Position numbers and translations under genes: made by a program. 64,000 nucleotides of DNA from Escherichia coli (GTDB taxonomy: Bacteria; Pseudomonadota; Gammaproteobacteria; Enterobacterales; Enterobacteriaceae): NCBI RefSeq assembly GCF_003018255.1, contig NZ_CP027440.1. One strand, 5' to 3'. The notes under the pieces are model-generated. The model worked only from the letters and a program-made list of their open reading frames with translations, ran no database searches and was not told where the DNA came from. Positions 38,176 to 48,017 of the stretch are shown piece by piece. Positions within the stretch are counted from its first letter, which is position 1; the number at the start of each line of letters is the position of its first letter.

Positions 38176-40608
38176 ATGAGTGTGATTGCGCAGGCAGGGG
38201 CGAAAGGTCGTCAACTGCATAAATTTGGTGGCAGTAGTCTGGCTGATGTGAAGTGTTATTTGCGTGTCGCGGGCATTATGGCGGAGTACTCTCAGCCTGA
38301 CGATATGATGGTGGTTTCCGCCGCCGGTAGCACCACTAACCAGTTGATTAACTGGTTGAAACTAAGCCAGACCGATCGTCTCTCTGCGCATCAGGTTCAA
38401 CAAACGCTACGTCGTTATCAGTGCGATCTGATTAGCGGCCTGCTACCCGCCGAAGAAGCCGATAGCCTCATTAGCGCCTTTGTCAGCGATCTGGAACGCC
38501 TCGCGGCGCTGCTCGACAGCGGTATTAATGATGCGGTGTATGCGGAAGTGGTGGGCCACGGTGAAGTGTGGTCGGCGCGCCTGATGTCTGCGGTACTTAA
38601 TCAACAAGGGCTGCCAGCGGCCTGGCTTGATGCCCGCGAGTTTTTACGCGCTGAACGCGCCGCGCAGCCGCAGGTTGATGAAGGGCTTTCTTACCCGTTG
38701 CTGCAACAGCTACTGGTACAACATCCGGGCAAACGTCTGGTGGTGACCGGGTTTATCAGCCGTAACAACGCCGGTGAAACGGTGCTGCTGGGGCGTAACG
38801 GTTCCGACTATTCCGCGACACAAATCGGTGCGCTGGCGGGTGTTTCCCGCGTAACCATCTGGAGCGATGTCGCCGGGGTATATAGTGCCGACCCGCGTAA
38901 AGTGAAAGATGCCTGTCTGCTGCCATTGCTGCGTCTTGATGAAGCCAGCGAACTGGCGCGTCTGGCGGCCCCCGTTCTTCACGCCCGTACTTTACAGCCA
39001 GTATCCGGTAGTGAAATCGACCTGCAGCTGCGCTGTAGCTACACGCCGGATCAAGGTTCCACGCGCATTGAACGCGTGCTGGCCTCCGGTACTGGTGCGC
39101 GTATTGTCACCAGCCACGATGATGTCTGTTTGATTGAGTTTCAGGTGCCCGCCAGTCAGGATTTTAAACTGGCGCATAAAGAGATCGACCAAATCCTGAA
39201 ACGTGCTCAGGTGCGCCCACTGGCAGTTGGCGTGCATAACGATCGCCAGTTGCTGCAATTTTGCTACACCTCGGAAGTGGCCGACAGTGCGCTGAAAATC
39301 CTCGACGAAGCAGGATTACCCGGCGAACTGCGTCTGCGTCAGGGGCTGGCGCTGGTGGCGATGGTTGGGGCGGGCGTCACCCGTAACCCGCTGCATTGCC
39401 ACCGCTTCTGGCAGCAACTGAAAGGCCAGCCGGTCGAGTTTACCTGGCAGTCCGATGACGGCATCAGCCTGGTGGCAGTACTGCGCACCGGCCCGACCGA
39501 AAGCCTGATTCAGGGGCTGCATCAGTCCGTCTTCCGCGCAGAAAAACGCATCGGCCTGGTATTGTTCGGTAAGGGAAATATCGGTTCCCGCTGGCTGGAA
39601 CTGTTCGCCCGTGAGCAGAGCACGCTCTCGGCGCGCACCGGCTTTGAATTTGTGCTGGCAGGCGTGGTGGACAGCCGTCGCAGCCTGTTGAGCTATGACG
39701 GGCTGGACGCCAGCCGTGCGCTAGCCTTCTTTAATGATGAAGCCGTCGAACAGGATGAAGAGTCGCTATTCCTGTGGATGCGTGCCCATCCGTATGATGA
39801 TTTAGTTGTGCTGGACGTTACTGCCAGCCAGCAGCTTGCTGATCAGTATCTCGATTTCGCCAGCCACGGTTTCCACGTCATCAGTGCCAACAAACTGGCG
39901 GGAGCGAGCGACAGCAATAAATATCGCCAGATCCACGACGCGTTCGAAAAAACCGGGCGTCACTGGCTGTACAACGCCACCGTCGGCGCAGGTTTGCCGA
40001 TCAACCATACCGTGCGCGATCTGATCGACAGCGGCGACACTATTTTGTCGATCAGCGGGATCTTCTCCGGCACGCTCTCCTGGCTGTTCCTGCAATTCGA
40101 CGGTAGCGTGCCGTTTACTGAACTGGTGGATCAGGCGTGGCAGCAGGGCTTAACTGAACCTGACCCGCGTGATGACCTCTCCGGCAAAGATGTGATGCGC
40201 AAGCTGGTGATTCTGGCGCGTGAAGCGGGTTACAACATTGAACCGGACCAGGTGCGTGTTGAATCACTGGTGCCAACCCATTGCGAAGGTGGAAGCATCG
40301 ACCATTTCTTTGAAAATGGCGATGAACTTAATGAGCAGATGGTACAACGGTTGGAAGCGGCCCGTGAAATGGGGCTGGTGTTGCGCTACGTGGCGCGTTT
40401 CGATGCCAACGGCAAAGCGCGAGTAGGCGTGGAAGCGGTGCGAGAAGACCATCCGCTGGCATCACTACTACCGTGCGATAACGTCTTTGCCATCGAAAGC
40501 CGCTGGTATCGCGATAATCCGTTGGTGATCCGCGGGCCAGGTGCAGGGCGCGACGTCACCGCCGGGGCGATTCAGTCGGATATTAACCGTCTGGCGCAGT
40601 TGTTGTAG
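38176..40608 (+). CDS. metL: bifunctional aspartokinase II / homoserine dehydrogenase II
   Basis: 810-aa translation MSVIAQAGAKGRQLHKFGGSSLADVKCYLRVAGIMAEYS. Confidence 0.97.
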   Translation: MSVIAQAGAKGRQLHKFGGSSLADVKCYLRVAGIMAEYSQPDDMMVVSAAGSTTNQLINWLKLSQTDRLSAHQVQQTLRRYQCDLISGLLPAEEADSLISAFVSDLERLAALLDSGINDAVYAEVVGHGEVWSARLMSAVLNQQGLPAAWLDAREFLRAERAAQPQVDEGLSYPLLQQLLVQHPGKRLVVTGFISRNNAGETVLLGRNGSDYSATQIGALAGVSRVTIWSDVAGVYSADPRKVKDACLLPLLRLDEASELARLAAPVLHARTLQPVSGSEIDLQLRCSYTPDQGSTRIERVLASGTGARIVTSHDDVCLIEFQVPASQDFKLAHKEIDQILKRAQVRPLAVGVHNDRQLLQFCYTSEVADSALKILDEAGLPGELRLRQGLALVAMVGAGVTRNPLHCHRFWQQLKGQPVEFTWQSDDGISLVAVLRTGPTESLIQGLHQSVFRAEKRIGLVLFGKGNIGSRWLELFAREQSTLSARTGFEFVLAGVVDSRRSLLSYDGLDASRALAFFNDEAVEQDEESLFLWMRAHPYDDLVVLDVTASQQLADQYLDFASHGFHVISANKLAGASDSNKYRQIHDAFEKTGRHWLYNATVGAGLPINHTVRDLIDSGDTILSISGIFSGTLSWLFLQFDGSVPFTELVDQAWQQGLTEPDPRDDLSGKDVMRKLVILAREAGYNIEPDQVRVESLVPTHCEGGSIDHFFENGDELNEQMVQRLEAAREMGLVLRYVARFDANGKARVGVEAVREDHPLASLLPCDNVFAIESRWYRDNPLVIRGPGAGRDVTAGAIQSDINRLAQLL

Positions 40609-40619
40609 TGATTATTGAA

Positions 40620-40650
40620 CAAAAGCTGGCAGTTGCCAGCTTTTGTTGTC
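40620..40650 (+). terminator. metL intrinsic terminator
   Basis: caaaagctggca-gt-tgccagcttttg perfect 12-bp stem followed by a T-rich tail. Confidence 0.75.
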
Positions 40651-40824
40651 ACCTCTAAACCACCTCCTGCGGAGGTGGTGATTGATTGTCATTTTGCCTT
40701 TGGTCAGTGCCCCGGTAATAAGGGGGCTTTTGTGTTGAGCGATGAATTCACAGTGTGAATGGTGAAGTTATTTATGACAATTACAAAATGGCATTAAGTA
40801 AAAATATCTAAAACATCACCTGAT

Positions 40825-41685
40825 TTAAAATTGATAACCAATAGTAGTATAGGTTCCCCATCCTGTGTTTTTTAATTCAAATGGACCATCTCCGAAGTTA
40901 ACTTTCTCCCCAGCATTCCATTGTCCACCGTTGTGAAAATAACGTAGTGTAAATGCAAATTTCCAGTGTTCATATAGCAGGGAAAGGATATGGCTTGAAG
41001 CAATAGCATTACTGGTTCGTTTATTATTGTGTGATTTGTCCGCAAGATCGGAGCCAAAATCAAAGTTAGTAAAACTATTGTATACCAATCGCCCTCCGAA
41101 TAAATGGGTAAGAGGAATGCTATATTTTATTTTGAATCGATATCCGTCCCATTCATTTTCATTAGCGGCACCATAGTTTTGCCACTGATACTTGGCGTAT
41201 ATATTGGCAGAAAGCTTAATTGGTAGACCCGTGTCGATATCTGTACCAAGCCCCATATACCATGTACTTTGCCGGGATGACTGGTTGTCACCCATATCAT
41301 AGACATAGTTGTTTGCAATGAACCATTCTTTAAAAGGGCCGAACGCAAGATTTAATCCGGTCAATTTGTCAATGGAAAACCGAGGTTCTATTTCCGTAAA
41401 TAGTGGTGAGCCCTCATCCCAGATCCCAACATCATAGTGACTGCCGACGCCAAAGAATTTTGGTAGATCAACATAACCATAAAAATCAAACCAGTCTTTT
41501 CTTCCTGCTACAGTATATTCAGGGTAGAGGTCGTTAGTCAGTCTTGGGCCAAAGCGAGAGTCTGTGCGACCAATGACATTCAAGCTTTGATGTAACCAGC
41601 TTTCATCAATTTTAATTTCCTGAGCGTTTCCAATGCAAGGTATTAATAGAATGGATAAAGCTATCCCGTGCTTTTTTATACACAT
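40825..41685 (-). CDS. Tsx-family outer-membrane nucleoside-specific channel (Tsx paralog)
   Basis: 286 aa with a signal peptide; shares long blocks with E. coli Tsx as I recall it ([81 protein letters not shown]) and ends in an aromatic residue (GYQF). Confidence 0.85.
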
Positions 41686-41724
41686 AAATATATCTCATTA
41701 TTTATTGTTGATTTAGAGAAAAAT

Positions 41725-41761
41725 AATGCCATTCAGTGAATGAATGGCATTATAATTTTTT
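41725..41761 (-). terminator. intrinsic terminator after nucleotidase paralog A (bidirectional-looking)
   Basis: aatgccattca-gtgaa-tgaatggcatt 11-bp perfect stem flanked by A/T runs on both sides. Confidence 0.6.
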
Positions 41762-41763
41762 TA

Positions 41764-43389
41764 TTATTTGCTAACGTCCACCCGCATTTCATTTACCTGT
41801 GCAGGCGTAATCTTGTGGCCTTTCTTCAAATAATCGATCACGACATCGGACATGTTATTTCCGGCGCGGACCTGAACATTTTTCCCTTCTTTGAATGCCA
41901 GAAAACCATCGCCCCCCAGTGCAAGGAAAGTCGTTGTTGCAACATGGTAAATATTCGTATCAACGATCTCTTCACCATTAATTTTAAAAGATACTATGCG
42001 CTGACCTACTGGTTTCTTCGGGGTATAGCGCATTTCTGCGCCTTTTGACATTTGCAGGATGCCATTGGTAAGCGATGCCCCGTGTTCCAGTAGGTTACGC
42101 AGATCCTTACCGCTGAGATCCATTTCAGTAAGTTCATTCTTGAAGGGGAATGTACTGGTAATGTCGCCAAAGGTAATCGTGCCTGCATTTATATCCGCAC
42201 GTAAGCTGCCGGAGTTTATCAATGCAATCTGTGCAGTCGGTGCAGCGACAAGCATTGCATCGGTAAACAGGTTGCCAAGTTGCGATGACTCACCGTAGGC
42301 ACGAGTTAATGCAATCGATGATTCACCGACTGGTTGGCGTACAAGATCCGCCAGTTTTTTATTCCAGCCATTGATAACTTTTTGTGTGGTTGGATCAGGT
42401 ATCCATTCATCGGCATAAACCGTTTTCAGCTCAAAGCTCTTCACTTTATGAGTACGAGCTGTAGGGTTGACATCAAGGATTAATTTACCAATATCGATAC
42501 CGCCACTGTCAGTCGAAAGGATTAAGGTGTTGCCGACTTTGATTGGTTCTGGCGTTCCGACGTGGGCATGCCCGGTAATCAGAATATCCAATCCTTTCAC
42601 CTTGCTTGCGGTTTGAATATCTTTATCAAGAGCGCGTCTAACATCTGTATTGCCAATGCTGGACTGACGCGCCGGTACGCCTTCATGAACCAGCGCCACG
42701 GTGAGGTCAACCTTATCACGTAACTCATCGATATAATGCTGCAAATACTTCACTTCATCACGTGCTTCAATCCCCTGATTCTTGAGGGTCGCGGAAGATT
42801 TATCAAATCGGTTATTATTGTCATTATCGAGTCCCTGGAGAGAGAGCTCCGAGACCGTGTCATTAAATGCAAATACGCCGTGTAGCCCAACAATACCAAT
42901 CTTGATGCCATCTTTTTCCAGGATGGTGTAGGGCTTGTTCCAGAAGGGTTTCTCACTCTCTTTATGATAAACATTGGCTAATAAAACAGGGAAATTCGCT
43001 TTGCTTAATTGTCGGAGGGCATTATCCCAGCCATGGTCAAACTCATGATTACCGATTGATACTGCGTCAAAAGGCATGGTATTCATAATATCAATTATTG
43101 CTTCGCCCTTTGTCAGGCTACTGATATATGGCCCGGTGAAATAGTCTCCAGCATCAAAATAAAAGGTGGCTTTATTTTTGGCTTTCTCTTGTTTTACTAA
43201 CGTGGATATATTGGCAAAGCCACCAATGTCGCGTTTTCCGTCTGCGACATACGGTACTTTATAGGAATCCACATGAGCGTGAAGATCATTGGTATAAATA
43301 ATCGTGACATCCTGCGCCATAACTGAGGTCGAAAAAATAGTCAGCAATGTTGCGGCAAATAAAGTACGCTGCGCTGTTTTCATTCGCAT
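41764..43389 (-). CDS. UshA/CpdB-family periplasmic metallophosphoesterase / 5'-nucleotidase, paralog A
   Basis: 541 aa; signal peptide ending VMA|QD; calcineurin-like motifs [27 protein letters not shown]; C-terminal 5'-nucleotidase-type region with GGDGF; alternative ATG at 43383. Confidence 0.85.
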   Translation of the reverse strand: MRMKTAQRTLFAATLLTIFSTSVMAQDVTIIYTNDLHAHVDSYKVPYVADGKRDIGGFANISTLVKQEKAKNKATFYFDAGDYFTGPYISSLTKGEAIIDIMNTMPFDAVSIGNHEFDHGWDNALRQLSKANFPVLLANVYHKESEKPFWNKPYTILEKDGIKIGIVGLHGVFAFNDTVSELSLQGLDNDNNNRFDKSSATLKNQGIEARDEVKYLQHYIDELRDKVDLTVALVHEGVPARQSSIGNTDVRRALDKDIQTASKVKGLDILITGHAHVGTPEPIKVGNTLILSTDSGGIDIGKLILDVNPTARTHKVKSFELKTVYADEWIPDPTTQKVINGWNKKLADLVRQPVGESSIALTRAYGESSQLGNLFTDAMLVAAPTAQIALINSGSLRADINAGTITFGDITSTFPFKNELTEMDLSGKDLRNLLEHGASLTNGILQMSKGAEMRYTPKKPVGQRIVSFKINGEEIVDTNIYHVATTTFLALGGDGFLAFKEGKNVQVRAGNNMSDVVIDYLKKGHKITPAQVNEMRVDVSK

Positions 43390-43423
43390 TCCTTGTTAAA
43401 TAAATTGACTGATAAATGAGATT

Positions 43424-44977
43424 TTATTTGGCGACGTCCATGACTCGTTTAGTTAAGTCTGGGGTGACAGGTTTATGATTTTTGAAATAATCGATGATAG
43501 ATTCCGCCGAGGTTGTTCCCGGTATCGTCTTCACATTTTTTCCATTCAAAAATGCTTCAAAACCGTCACCACCACTGGCACAAAAGGAGTGCGTGGCAAT
43601 ACGATATGTTTGATTATCTTCCACGGGTTTGCCGTTAATGGTGAAAGAGATTAACCGTTGGTTGAGGGGTTTTTTGCTGTCATAGACAACCGCAACACTT
43701 TTAGAAACTTGTAACACACCGTTAGTTAGATTGGTTGCATGCGTCATCAATGATTTGAGATCGCGGCCCGTCAAATCCATCTCGATGAGGTCATTATTAA
43801 AGGGGAATGTGCTAATAACATCTCCCAGTGTGATATCGCCTTTAGGAAAATCAGCTCGAATCCCACCGCTATTTTGAAATCCGGCAACGGCATCAGGTGT
43901 TTTTTCCATCATTGCATCAAGAATAAGGTTGCCGGTAGAAGAGGAACTACCATACTCACGTGTTAAAACTACGGGAGAATGGCCGACAACTTCCTGTGTT
44001 ATTTTGTTAAGCTTTGCACTCCATTTATCAATAGTATTTTGAACGATGGTGTCAGGTTTAAATTGATCTGCAAAGATGGTGATTAACTCACCATTATAAC
44101 TGTCAATTTTCTTCGTTTTCGGATTGTAATCAAGCACAAGTTTTCCGATGTTGGTGCCGTATGCATCGGTAGATACAATTAATGTGTTATTAACTTTTAT
44201 TGGTTGCGGTGTTCCGACATGTGCGTGACCGGTAATTAAGACATCAACACCATTCACTTTTTTAGCTGTCTCAATATCTGCCTGTAGTAGCCGCTCCACA
44301 TCTTTACTACCAAAGCTTGATTGACGCGCCGGGACACCTTCGTGAATTAGCAAAACGGTAATGTCGACTTTACCTTTTAATTCTGCAAGTGCTTTATTTA
44401 AATATTTAATTTCGTCTCTGGCTTCTACGCCTTCACGTGCTTTTGCCGCGACTGTATCATAGAAAGCGAATGCGCCATGCAATCCAATCACACCAATCTT
44501 TAAACCATCTTTTTCGATAATGGTCCACGGATGATCCCAAACTGGTTTATTCGTATCGGTGTAGTAGATATTTCCCAGCAGAATGGGGAATTTTGCTTTT
44601 GATAACTGAGACACCATATTGGGCACACCGTGATCGAACTCGTGATTACCAACAGACACCGCATCAAAGGGCATAGTGTTCATGATATCAATAATAGCCT
44701 CACCTTTGGTCAGGGTGCTGATATACGGCCCGGTAAAATAGTCGCCTGCATCAAAGAAAAACACATCTTTGCTTTTTTTCTTCGCTTCATTAACGATGCC
44801 TGAAATATTAGCCATACCACCTATAAGTCTGTTCTTATCAACAGCGATGATTTTTGCTGGATTGACATGTGCGTGAATGTCATTCGTATAATAAATAGTA
44901 ACGTCCTGAGCTAGAACACTGTGAGAAAATATCACGCCGAATATGACTGATAATGTTGTAAATACAGTTTTCATCAT
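43424..44977 (-). CDS. UshA/CpdB-family periplasmic metallophosphoesterase / 5'-nucleotidase, paralog B
   Basis: 517 aa; signal peptide ending VLA|QD; same motif set (YTNDIHAH, FDAGDYF, GNHEFD, ITGHAH, GGDGF); 34-bp gap to paralog A suggests co-transcription. Confidence 0.85.
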   Translation of the reverse strand: MMKTVFTTLSVIFGVIFSHSVLAQDVTIYYTNDIHAHVNPAKIIAVDKNRLIGGMANISGIVNEAKKKSKDVFFFDAGDYFTGPYISTLTKGEAIIDIMNTMPFDAVSVGNHEFDHGVPNMVSQLSKAKFPILLGNIYYTDTNKPVWDHPWTIIEKDGLKIGVIGLHGAFAFYDTVAAKAREGVEARDEIKYLNKALAELKGKVDITVLLIHEGVPARQSSFGSKDVERLLQADIETAKKVNGVDVLITGHAHVGTPQPIKVNNTLIVSTDAYGTNIGKLVLDYNPKTKKIDSYNGELITIFADQFKPDTIVQNTIDKWSAKLNKITQEVVGHSPVVLTREYGSSSSTGNLILDAMMEKTPDAVAGFQNSGGIRADFPKGDITLGDVISTFPFNNDLIEMDLTGRDLKSLMTHATNLTNGVLQVSKSVAVVYDSKKPLNQRLISFTINGKPVEDNQTYRIATHSFCASGGDGFEAFLNGKNVKTIPGTTSAESIIDYFKNHKPVTPDLTKRVMDVAK

Positions 44978-45206
44978 CCCTCCTGGATAGGGTGTGTTAC
45001 ATTTGTTGAATTATTTAAATAAAAGACACATCGTGTCTTATTTTATGTAAGCATAGTTCAGAAAAGTATTGTGTGATCTTAGTAACAAATAATGTTATTA
45101 ATTAAACATTGACCATGATTATATTTCACGGTCATACATTTATATATTTAATTAAATGAAAGGTAGTGTTCTCTCTTAATTTATGGTCGTTTGTCGAGTG
45201 TATTGA

Positions 45207-46331
45207 CTAACAAGATGGAGTGAGCGATTCATTGTATTTTAACGCCAGTGAGGTCAGCATTTGTGTTACGCGACCTGCGGATAATAACGCGCTTTGGGTA
45301 AAGTCGTGTTGGTCTGTCAGCCATGTGATAAAACAACGACTGGTTGCCAGAGAAACATTTGCGCCCCTTTCTAAGCAGGCTCCCGTGAGTAGGCAGACCA
45401 TCTTGCAGTTATTCCCCTGCTCCCAGCGCTGCCACTGATTTTGCCACCAACCATGGTATGTCGTTCCCTTAAAATGCCAGGGCGTATCAGCGTTACTGTC
45501 ACTGATTTCTTCTTCTACGAACCAAAGTTCACCTTGTTGTTGGCGGAACTGATCTGCCCAGGCTGTAATAATTGCGCCTCTTAGAAAACATTCGTGTGAA
45601 ATAATATGCGTTTTGACATCTGGATAGCGGATTTTCAGTATTCTGAAATGCCCGTGTGCCGTGATAACCGGGCGTAGTATGGCTCCCTTACCGTTGCGCT
45701 TGAGTACAGCACTGCCATACTGAATTTCATCGAACTGGCTCCGGCGCAAGAATTGCGCTTCACGCATATCTACCTTCTGCACGATATCGCGATGGTGCAT
45801 AGTTGGTTCTGTGTTGCCCTTGTAACTGTACCGCAGACTGTCTCCTGTCTGATGTTGCGTATAATTCGTGGAGAGATGAAGAATGTTGCCACGAGTGGCG
45901 TCAAGACTGACTAAAACATACAGTTTTTGTACTGCGCTGGCCCCTTGAAAGGGTATGAACAGTTGAACGGTTTCAATGGCCTGGGGATGCGTAATTTCTT
46001 TCTGATACTGTTTAGGCGTCCAGACTTTTTTGCAGTTACGGCATTGAATGCGTTGCGAACCCTGTGGATTGTGACCATAACAAATCATGTCTGTGCCATA
46101 ACATACCGGGCAGAAATGACCCTTCTCCGAGGCCCACGTAGATAAGTGAACTGACAACCAGTCACGAAATTGTTGCTCGTCAAACAACGGCGGGTAACTG
46201 CCACATGCCCGACAGTGCAGTGCCGGATAACCCAGTTTATAGTCTGGCCAACTGTAATCTTCCGATGAGGCCAATCCCAAATTTCGGCAACCGAACGTTT
46301 TACAGGCATTAATCGTAAACAGAGTCGACAT
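45207..46331 (-). CDS. cysteine-rich cytoplasmic protein with transposase-type zinc ribbon (possible IS1/IS1595-like transposase relic or regulator)
   Basis: 374-aa ORF with no signal peptide; Cys pairs at C10/C15 and C40/C43, then CPVCYG...GSQRIQCRNCKKVWTP resembling the CPxC...QRYxCxxCxKxW zinc ribbon of IS1 InsA / IS1595 transposases; assignment is by motif only. Confidence 0.55.
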   Translation of the reverse strand: MSTLFTINACKTFGCRNLGLASSEDYSWPDYKLGYPALHCRACGSYPPLFDEQQFRDWLSVHLSTWASEKGHFCPVCYGTDMICYGHNPQGSQRIQCRNCKKVWTPKQYQKEITHPQAIETVQLFIPFQGASAVQKLYVLVSLDATRGNILHLSTNYTQHQTGDSLRYSYKGNTEPTMHHRDIVQKVDMREAQFLRRSQFDEIQYGSAVLKRNGKGAILRPVITAHGHFRILKIRYPDVKTHIISHECFLRGAIITAWADQFRQQQGELWFVEEEISDSNADTPWHFKGTTYHGWWQNQWQRWEQGNNCKMVCLLTGACLERGANVSLATSRCFITWLTDQHDFTQSALLSAGRVTQMLTSLALKYNESLTPSC

Positions 46332-46463
46332 ATATCACCAACGATTTCACAAGGTCGTTGATTTTGTCCGGCAACTATCCCCTGCAGATGTGATTACTCT
46401 CACATAAATAAGTCTTTCAGAACGTAATGTAGCAATCCTTTATCTCACTGAAAGGGATTGTTT

Positions 46464-48017
46464 ATGAAAATTAAAATACTTGCTGCGGGTATCGCATTAA
46501 CACTGCCGTTCTGGGCTTGCGCTAAAGATGTCACTATTATTTATACCAACGACCTCCATGCGCATGTAGAACCTTATAAAGTGCCGTGGATCGCTGACGG
46601 TAAACGGGATATTGGCGGCTGGGCAAATATCACTACGCTGGTTAAGCAAGAAAAAGCAAAAAATAAAGCGACATGGTTTTTTGATGCGGGCGACTATTTT
46701 ACCGGGCCATATATCAGCAGCCTGACCAAAGGTAAGGCTATTATCGATATTATGAATACTATGCCGTTTGATGCCGTCACGATAGGCAACCATGAATTTG
46801 ACCACGGCTGGGACAACACATTATTACAGTTGAGTCAGGCAAAATTCCCGATTGTGCAGGGCAATGTTTTTTATCAGAACAGCAGTAAATCATTCTGGGA
46901 TAAGCCCTATACCATCATCGAAAAAGACGGTGTGAAAATAGGCGTTATAGGTTTGCACGGTGTATTTGCCTTTAATGACACAGTATCTGCTGCCACGCGA
47001 GTGGGTATTGAGGCGCGTGATGAAATTAAATGGCTACAACGTTATATCGATGAACTTAAAGGCAAGGTTGATTTGACCGTCGCCCTGATCCATGAAGGTG
47101 TTCCGGCCCGCCAGTCCAGTATGGGAGGCACAGATGTGCGTCGCGCGCTGGATAAAGATATTCAGACGGCAAGTCAGGTGAAAGGGCTGGATATTTTGAT
47201 CACCGGACATGCACATGTGGGTACGCCGGAACCGATTAAAGTCGGCAATACGCTCATCCTCTCCACTGACAGCGGCGGGATTGATGTGGGCAAACTGGTT
47301 CTCGACTACAAAGAGAAGCCGCATAATTTTACGGTGAAAAACTTCGAGCTTAAAACCATTTACGCTGACGAGTGGAAGCCCGATCCACAAACGAAACAGG
47401 TGATCGACGGCTGGAATAAAAAGCTTGATGAAGTGGTGCAACAAACGGTGGCGCAATCGCCGGTTGAATTAAAACGTGCCTATGGTGAATCGGCTTCCCT
47501 CGGGAACCTGGCGGCTGACGCTTTACTGGTAGCGGCGGGTAAAAACACCCAATTGGCGTTAACCAACTCTGGCGGCATTCGCAATGAGATCCCCGCAGGG
47601 GCGATCACGATGGGCGGCGTCATCAGTACGTTCCCGTTCCCCAACGAACTGGTGACGATGGAACTCACGGGTAAACAATTACGCAGTCTGATGGAACACG
47701 GCGCAAGTTTAAGCAATGGCGTTTTACAGGTATCGAAAGGCCTGGAAATGAAGTACGACAGCAGCAAGCCGGTTGGTCAGCGGGTAATCACACTGACTCT
47801 GAATGGCAAACCCATTGAAGATGCGACGGTTTATCACATTGCTACTCAGAGTTTCCTTGCTGATGGTGGAGATGGTTTTACCGCCTTTACCGAAGGGAAA
47901 GCGCGTAACACAACGGGCGGTTATTACGTTTATCACGCGGTGGTTGATTACTTCAAAGCGGGCAACACCATTACGGATGAACAGCTCAACGGTATGCGCG
48001 TGAAGGATATCAAATAA
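46464..48017 (+). CDS. UshA/CpdB-family periplasmic metallophosphoesterase / 5'-nucleotidase, paralog C
   Basis: 517 aa from the ATG at 46464 (RBS aaggga; the ORF-track ORF starts at a TTG at 46458); signal peptide ending ACA|KD; motifs [32 protein letters not shown]; closest by eye to paralog A. Confidence 0.85.

Follow-up and report, generated by a model that had tools for sequence, protein, structure and literature searches.

An AT-rich spacer in an Escherichia coli accessory island as a possible terminator and promoter region of a nucleotidase-Tsx operon

Promoters of the nucleoside regulon of Escherichia coli (deoP2, cdd, udp, tsx-p2, nupG and cytR) carry their CytR boxes between or next to CRP sites. 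For CytR, direct repeats with a 1-bp gap and the degeneracy GTTRCATT have been described, an arrangement reported for cdd and cytR (PMC3454398). Here we compare with these promoters, with intrinsic terminators, with the divergent promoter of a paralogous nucleotidase gene and with island DNA bound by H-NS, a 229-bp AT-rich spacer found in 64,000 nucleotides of E. coli DNA (contig NZ_CP027440.1; "the window" hereafter means this whole stretch at its full length). The spacer separates the gene of a hypothetical zinc-ribbon protein (Zn) from that of a periplasmic 5'-nucleotidase (B), which is followed by a second such nucleotidase gene (A) and by the gene of a Tsx-like channel. Our best explanation, which we hold at a probability of roughly 0.5, is that the spacer is the upstream non-coding part of an inserted gene block and serves both as the terminator of Zn and as the promoter region of B-A-tsx. 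A hairpin at 45142→45103 (hairpin 2), with an interrupted U-rich tail, would end the Zn transcript weakly, and the proximal 130 bp would hold the promoter and the translation start signals of B-A-tsx. For the promoter these would be a -35/-10 pair (45039-45010), a CRP-like site (45072-45087) and tandem CytR-like octamers that cover the -10 and +1; for translation, a strong Shine-Dalgarno sequence. Like other genes for nucleoside uptake, the operon would then respond in its expression to nucleoside and carbon status.

By itself the spacer matters little; it is of interest as the probable control region of an accessory operon for two periplasmic 5'-nucleotidases and a Tsx-type channel. Should the CRP-like and CytR-like sites prove real, they would place the island within the catabolite and nucleoside regulon of its host, and such wiring would help explain the timing of extracellular nucleotide scavenging by carrier strains.

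Gene order, occurrence and origin

The window covers an E. coli accessory island between metL and metF, with up to 100% identity to E. coli chromosomes. This island is known solely from an in silico description, as 'GR 31 metL..metF' of extraintestinal pathogenic E. coli (ExPEC) strains (PMC12928451). Since Zn, B, A and the tsx-like gene all lie on the minus strand, "upstream" in the operon runs from right to left in window coordinates:

46331→45207, minus strand: zinc-ribbon hypothetical protein gene (Zn), with its stop codon at 45207-45209
45207..45243, minus strand: last 12 codons and stop of Zn, which came with the insertion instead of descending from the ancestral gene (homology limits 45244 / 40607)
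45206→44978, minus strand (the gene strand): spacer, bounded by the stop of Zn and the start codon of B and lying within the inserted block 40609-45243
44977→43424, minus strand: nucleotidase B, with its ATG at 44977 (the NCBI PGAP start is the next ATG, 44974)
43389→41764, minus strand: nucleotidase A
41685→40825, minus strand: Tsx-like channel
46458-48017, divergent from Zn: nucleotidase C, the third nucleotidase

An earlier note on this DNA had described a strongly AT-rich spacer at 44978-45206, and both the limits and the composition are borne out: the spacer is bounded by the Zn stop and the ATG of B, and its GC content is 28.4% (25-28%) versus about 40-50% in the flanking genes. It is present in single copy and is carried by 658 of 5426 complete E. 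coli genomes (~12%), the carriers of spacer and operon including CFT073, 536 and Nissle 1917. A further 100 genomes matched in the first search were set aside, the match covering only 57 bp of a paralogous gene and not the spacer. The spacer holds no open reading frame of at least 20 amino acids, and Rfam covariance models run against both of its strands gave a sole match, far under threshold (E = 3.7). It is ordinary AT-rich DNA between genes, acquired with the block to which it belongs.

The origin of this block was traced through 30 loci encoding Zn relatives from other Enterobacteriaceae. Most of these loci (including those of E. whittamii, Pseudocitrobacter, Citrobacter and Klebsiella) show the layout metL> <Zn C> metF, with no B-A-tsx; there Zn and metL are convergent, their 3' ends overlapping by ~36 nt, and in this ancestral layout Zn has no downstream gene. 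The homology of the window to the ancestral metL-Zn junctions stops at 40607 and at 45244, which makes the block 40609-45243 an insertion. Its ~4.6 kb hold the spacer, the B, A and tsx-like genes and the final 12 codons of Zn, and they entered the 3' end of the ancestral Zn immediately after the stop codon of metL; the spacer and B-A-tsx came in as a single unit. The insertion replaced roughly the last 12-14 codons of the ancestral Zn. At its left edge, between the convergent metL and tsx-like genes, lie two strong hairpins, at 40619-40648 (AAAAGCTGGCA-GT-TGCCAGCTTTT) and at 40661-40681 (ACCACCTCC-TGC-GGAGGTGGT), both of which are probably terminators.

Homologs of the spacer were found neither in the 30 loci of other species nor in plasmids or phages, and a metagenome scan returned just E. 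coli-type contigs plus one unrelated AT-rich terminator tail. A donor context was also sought through homologs of B: their identity falls from 96% straight to at most 75%, and the donor was not found. The 75% relatives of B sit in another layout, Zn'<->B-Tsx-A, with the canonical promoter and a different upstream region. Since spacer DNA was found solely in E. coli, comparison among genomes is confined to two E. coli allele groups. They are covered by an alignment of six alleles and stand about 9-12% apart in the spacer, the most diverged segment of the inserted block between them, where a comparison along the block puts the divergence at 10.6-12%. Along 45176-45250 (75 nt, comprising the 3' end of Zn and the first 31 nt of the spacer) these groups have no fixed difference, and the one substitution there belongs to a single genome; over the rest of the spacer they are 10-12% apart, and in the 5' half of Zn up to 19%. 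A segment with no fixed difference beside such diverged flanks suggests mosaic recombination within the island.

Palindrome, hairpin and the end of the Zn transcript

Two inverted repeats in the spacer had been put forward in the earlier note as candidate operators, possibly for the adjacent zinc-ribbon protein or for a nucleoside-responsive regulator. Both are in the sequence, the palindrome aagacac-atc-gtgtctt just as described and the imperfect repeat tgaccatg...cacggtca (45110-45134) as the core of the longer hairpin 2:

45103..45142, minus strand: hairpin 2, with an inner 9-bp stem (45134-45126 / 45118-45110), a loop (45125-45119) and an outer part of 7 pairs (45142-45136 / 45109-45103), followed by the tail AUGUUUAAUU
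45118..45123, minus strand: TATAAT hexamer without mismatch, lying partly in the loop and partly in the 3' arm of hairpin 2, a possible distal -10, kept in all six alleles
45023..45039, no strand assigned: palindrome 1, AAGACAC-ATC-GTGTCTT, overlapping the putative -35

Hairpin 2 is the sole spacer structure beyond chance. Read on the gene strand, 45142→45103, it forms 16 pairs with one bulge at -14.6 kcal/mol (z = -4.3), and an equally stable 46-nt window arose anywhere in the shuffled whole spacer in 1 of 300 shuffles. It begins 65 nt past the Zn stop codon and was flagged by a scan for terminator-like structures, whose rule of at least 5 T in 8 bases the tail AUGUUUAAUU satisfies but only as an interrupted run. 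Between the two allele groups its 25-nt core differs by six substitutions. In the divergent allele the outer 6 bp are kept through one compensatory change (C-G to T-A) and a G·T to G-C change, and two inner pairs are lost; this allele still folds, with a weaker stem (-9.3 kcal/mol, z -2.8). A sequence that changes this fast while its pairing persists points to a structured RNA and away from a site bound by protein. The resemblance to intrinsic terminators lies in this mode of evolution and in the architecture, namely a stable stem-loop 65 nt past the stop, a T-rich stretch after it and an upstream A-rich stretch that pairs with the tail. It differs from them in having G-C in just four of the nine inner pairs and in its interrupted U-tract. 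This interruption makes some read-through likely; most probably hairpin 2 is a weak intrinsic terminator of the Zn gene, and not an operator.

Palindrome 1 is of another kind. Its folding energy is only -6.5 kcal/mol, and a perfect inverted repeat with arms of at least 7 bp and a loop of at most 20 turned up in 42% of 2000 dinucleotide-preserving shuffles of the spacer (19% with the loop limited to at most 6). The 3' arm reads GTGCCTT in the Nissle-type allele (one mismatch) and GTTCCTT in divergent alleles (two mismatches), from which it follows that the palindrome became perfect through a recent C-to-T change. Of the 658 carrier genomes, 84 have the surrounding 55-nt segment unchanged and 476 differ from it at about one position. 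Thus the palindrome neither exceeds what base composition yields nor has both arms conserved among carriers, and the proposal that it is an operator is not supported. We judge it a chance, allele-specific by-product of AT-rich sequence and the C-to-T change, with no function of its own.

An account in which both inverted repeats bind a regulator that acts as a dimer (the Zn protein or a repressor that responds to nucleosides), with the second repeat clamping the TATAAT in its loop, would retain the claim of the earlier note, and hairpin 2 lends it something: the repeat is statistically real, it flanks a perfect TATAAT, and the symmetric change at position 5 of both arms also fits a symmetric protein-binding site. 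The Zn protein, moreover, has InsA-type zinc ribbons. We nevertheless consider this account very improbable, with palindrome 1 at chance level and not conserved, and with the second repeat differing at 6 of 25 positions between alleles, unlike an operator. Neither repeat matches a known consensus, and the repeat conserved beside all Zn genes (see below) is absent here.

The main rival is read-through from Zn. In this account no promoter works in the spacer, transcripts of B-A-tsx begin at the CRP-dependent promoter of Zn, and partial termination at hairpin 2 fixes how much the operon is expressed relative to Zn. Zn and B do lie on the same strand, leaky termination is to be expected from the poor tail, the promoter predicted in the spacer is at chance level (see below), and in other species tandem nucleotidase genes are separated by hairpins only, with no CRP sites. 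On the other hand, 229 bp is long for a junction within an operon, the ancestral Zn was convergent to metL and had no gene downstream of it, and the spacer arrived together with B; read-through also leaves the CRP-like and CytR-like sites and the conserved -10 unexplained. We regard it as unlikely. The gaps between tandem nucleotidase genes that we saw in other species (locus L015, 4204-4314; L017, 3149-3293; L016, 2478-2594) hold strong GC-rich hairpins followed by T runs, e.g., AAGGGTTCAT...ATGAACCCTT, and no CRP sites. In Enterobacter-type clusters, too, hairpins stand between the tandem nucleotidase genes, a likeness that also speaks for hairpin 2 as a terminator. The absence of CRP sites from these gaps hints that hairpin-punctuated read-through is common in these nucleotidase clusters.

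Promoter, CRP-like and CytR-like elements

The earlier note also expected the operon promoter to lie in the spacer, possibly under the control of CytR or CRP. The proximal part of the spacer offers the following candidates:

45010..45039, minus strand: σ70-like pair, -35 AAGACA (45039-45034), 18-nt gap, -10 AATAAT (45015-45010), with a predicted start at ~45003
44978..44984, minus strand: strong Shine-Dalgarno AGGAGGG directly before the ATGATG of B, its GGAGGG invariant
45072..45087, no strand assigned: CRP-like core TGTGAtcttagTAACA, matching 9/10 core positions of TGTGA-N6-TCACA
44996..45012, minus strand: tandem CytR-like octamers AATTCAAC-A-AATGTAAC, each one mismatch from AATGCAAC, with a 1-bp gap

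Promoter prediction did find a -35/-10 pair at 45039-45010, which matches the consensus at 9 of 12 positions and is the sole consensus promoter match on the gene strand. Its hexamers, their spacing and the Shine-Dalgarno are invariant in all six alleles. The expectation of an operon promoter in the spacer is plausible: the spacer was inserted with B-A-tsx, the ribosome-binding site is strong and the -35/-10 is conserved, but matches of this quality are not enriched. Judged by these sequence features, the 130 bp of the spacer nearest to B probably contain the promoter of B-A-tsx along with CRP-like and CytR-like elements.

The single mismatch of the CRP-like core is the C of TCACA. Searching for TGTGANNNNNNTCACA with at most one mismatch gave six sites in the 64 kb versus 2.0 expected, two of them in intergenic regions of the island: the one at 45072-45087 in the spacer and a perfect one at 46389-46404, between Zn and C. 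A site as good as the former occurred in 1.5% of spacer shuffles (P≈0.015). The CRP half-sites are kept in six of six alleles (two lineages), with changes only at one N6 and one flanking position. By analogy with the divergent Zn-nucleotidase promoter, which has a conserved CRP site, CRP control would fit this nucleotidase gene family.

On the plus strand the CytR-like octamers read GTTACATT-T-GTTGAATT, a direct repeat of which each copy is one mismatch from GTTGCATT. The octamers, kept in all alleles with a variable base between them, extend over the putative -10 and +1. Such a pair was seen in 0.09% of spacer shuffles (P≈0.0009) and is the sole one in the window. We calibrated the CytR search against the K-12 cdd, cytR, deoP2 and tsx promoters: octamer-like matches of cdd, deo and tsx mostly keep the GCA core, and those of deoP2 lie on or between a pair of CRP cores spaced 53 bp centre to centre. 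Set against the nucleoside-regulon promoters, then, the spacer shares the physiology of its downstream genes (nucleotidases and a Tsx-type channel), a 9/10 CRP core, and a direct octamer repeat of the GTTRCATT type with a 1-bp gap. It differs from them in that its octamers overlap the -10/+1, have no GCA core and lie 59 bp from the sole CRP-like core, which is itself at a noncanonical position (~-76.5). The pair is a candidate, and not an established, member of the CytR operators. Of the regulatory proposal of the earlier note, the presence of a CRP-like core and of CytR-like octamers holds, though neither lies in a palindrome and neither has the geometry of a known promoter. A comparison with DeoR operators gave none, the best match to the 16-bp consensus palindrome TGTTAGAATTCTAACA having 5/16 mismatches. 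Consensus scans of the spacer for PurR, FNR, Fur, ArcA, NagC, IHF and H-NS returned only the weak matches expected of AT-rich DNA, and no consensus scanned matches palindrome 1 or the second inverted repeat.

Several observations weigh against our best explanation. A 2-kb scan found 2 promoter-like sites versus 4.5 expected, which places the -35/-10 at chance level, and an approximate matrix scored many alternative hexamer pairs on both strands as equal or better. These alternatives include the perfect TATAAT in the loop of hairpin 2, a hexamer that is itself statistically unremarkable (by a rough estimate ~0.5 are expected by chance at this AT content). No CRP core with at most three mismatches adjoins the octamers, and both octamer cores are altered (TTCAA and TGTAA), so that GCA is lost. 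With the start predicted at ~45003 the CRP-like core sits in a position that is standard for neither class I nor class II; other -10 candidates would bring its centre to -36.5 or -46.5. Hairpin 2, for its part, has the interrupted tail and the weaker stem of the divergent allele. The motif tests, of ~12 consensus sequences, were picked after the data had been viewed, and with two allele lineages only, the comparison between alleles has little power. In the literature on the island we found no data on transcription starts, transcript 3' ends, regulation or protein binding.

There is also a more novel variant, in which a CytR-type repressor acts on the octamers over -10/+1 with no CRP partner, by direct repression and not by anti-activation, and in which the TATAAT-bearing hairpin 2 couples termination of Zn to firing of the operon; we consider this variant improbable. 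Very improbable, too, is a distal promoter with its -10 at TTTAAT (45156-45151) and a start at ~45144, which would make hairpin 2 the 5' end of a ~165-nt leader that stabilizes or attenuates the B mRNA. The pair is among the top candidates of the approximate matrix scan, and hairpin 2 would begin 2 nt from the predicted start; yet the scores of this matrix are inflated by the AT-rich background, the -35 region differs between alleles, and the leader has no Rfam match.

The composition of the spacer raises a further alternative, in which acquired AT-rich DNA is mainly coated and silenced by H-NS, promoters on both strands are weak or spurious, and the motifs are incidental. This is compatible with our best explanation, and we hold it possible, if rather doubtful. 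The spacer resembles H-NS-bound island DNA in its very low GC relative to the host (25-28% versus ~50%), its place in an accessory island and its dense promoter-like hexamer pairs on both strands. There is also an 8/10 match to the nucleation motif at 45187-45178, and the spacer is the fastest-evolving segment of the block. It is unlike such DNA in being a segment of only 229 bp; a degree of constraint is suggested, moreover, by sub-blocks that are conserved, among them a 32-nt one at 45082-45113, both CRP half-sites, the -10 and the octamers.

The Zn protein and the Zn-nucleotidase promoter

Of more note than the spacer, as a by-product of this analysis, is the neighbouring Zn gene, which encodes a transposase-fold protein with zinc ribbons and is fixed beside a CRP-dependent nucleotidase promoter in many genera. 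The ribbons are of the InsA type, a domain whose name in Pfam and NCBIfam comes from the N-terminal part of IS1 InsA; an AlphaFold model of the Zn protein built from an 18-sequence alignment was unusable (predicted local distance difference test, pLDDT, 38.8). The intergenic region between Zn and nucleotidase C, 46332-46463, is conserved across about 27 aligned loci from ~10 enterobacterial genera, and two elements stand out in it:

46339-46360, beside the Zn start: inverted repeat ACCAACGATTT-N4-RGGTCGYTG, invariant in the aligned loci
46389-46404, Zn-C region: CRP core TGTGA-N6-TCACA, its half-sites kept across ~10 genera and its N6 free

The CRP core has at most one mismatch (0 or 1) in 35 of the 36 loci checked. 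Its centre is 65.5 bp from the ATG of Zn and 67.5 bp from that of C, and a -10-like TAAnGT starts 20 nt after TCACA, which is class II CRP geometry for nucleotidase C. In the repeat at the Zn start we also noted G·U-compatible variation (GGTCGCTG), which fits an RNA hairpin in the 5' untranslated region of Zn.

This conserved intergenic region makes it plausible that the Zn protein binds DNA, but we found no link between this protein and the spacer. The spacer has no copy of the inverted repeat kept at every Zn start (ACCAACGATTT...GGTCGYTG), so that the binding of the zinc-ribbon protein there that had been considered in the earlier note is not supported, and local alignment of the spacer with the canonical Zn-nucleotidase promoters scored no better than shuffles. 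The two regions have in common that each lies upstream of a paralogous periplasmic nucleotidase gene and carries an element of the TGTGA-N6-TCACA type. They differ in that the Zn-nucleotidase promoter spans ~10 genera, is of class II and has its own inverted repeat, whereas the spacer is confined to E. coli, dissimilar in sequence and devoid of that repeat.

Across species, a Zn paralogue always has a divergently transcribed nucleotidase gene as its partner (loci L037, L041 [Kluyvera-like], L015, L016 and L034). Two layouts recur, Zn'<->B-Tsx-A and Zn<->C-B-Tsx-A, and the order of the nucleotidase and Tsx genes varies by lineage. The genome of Escherichia strain SCPM-O-B-8794 contains two such Zn-nucleotidase loci.
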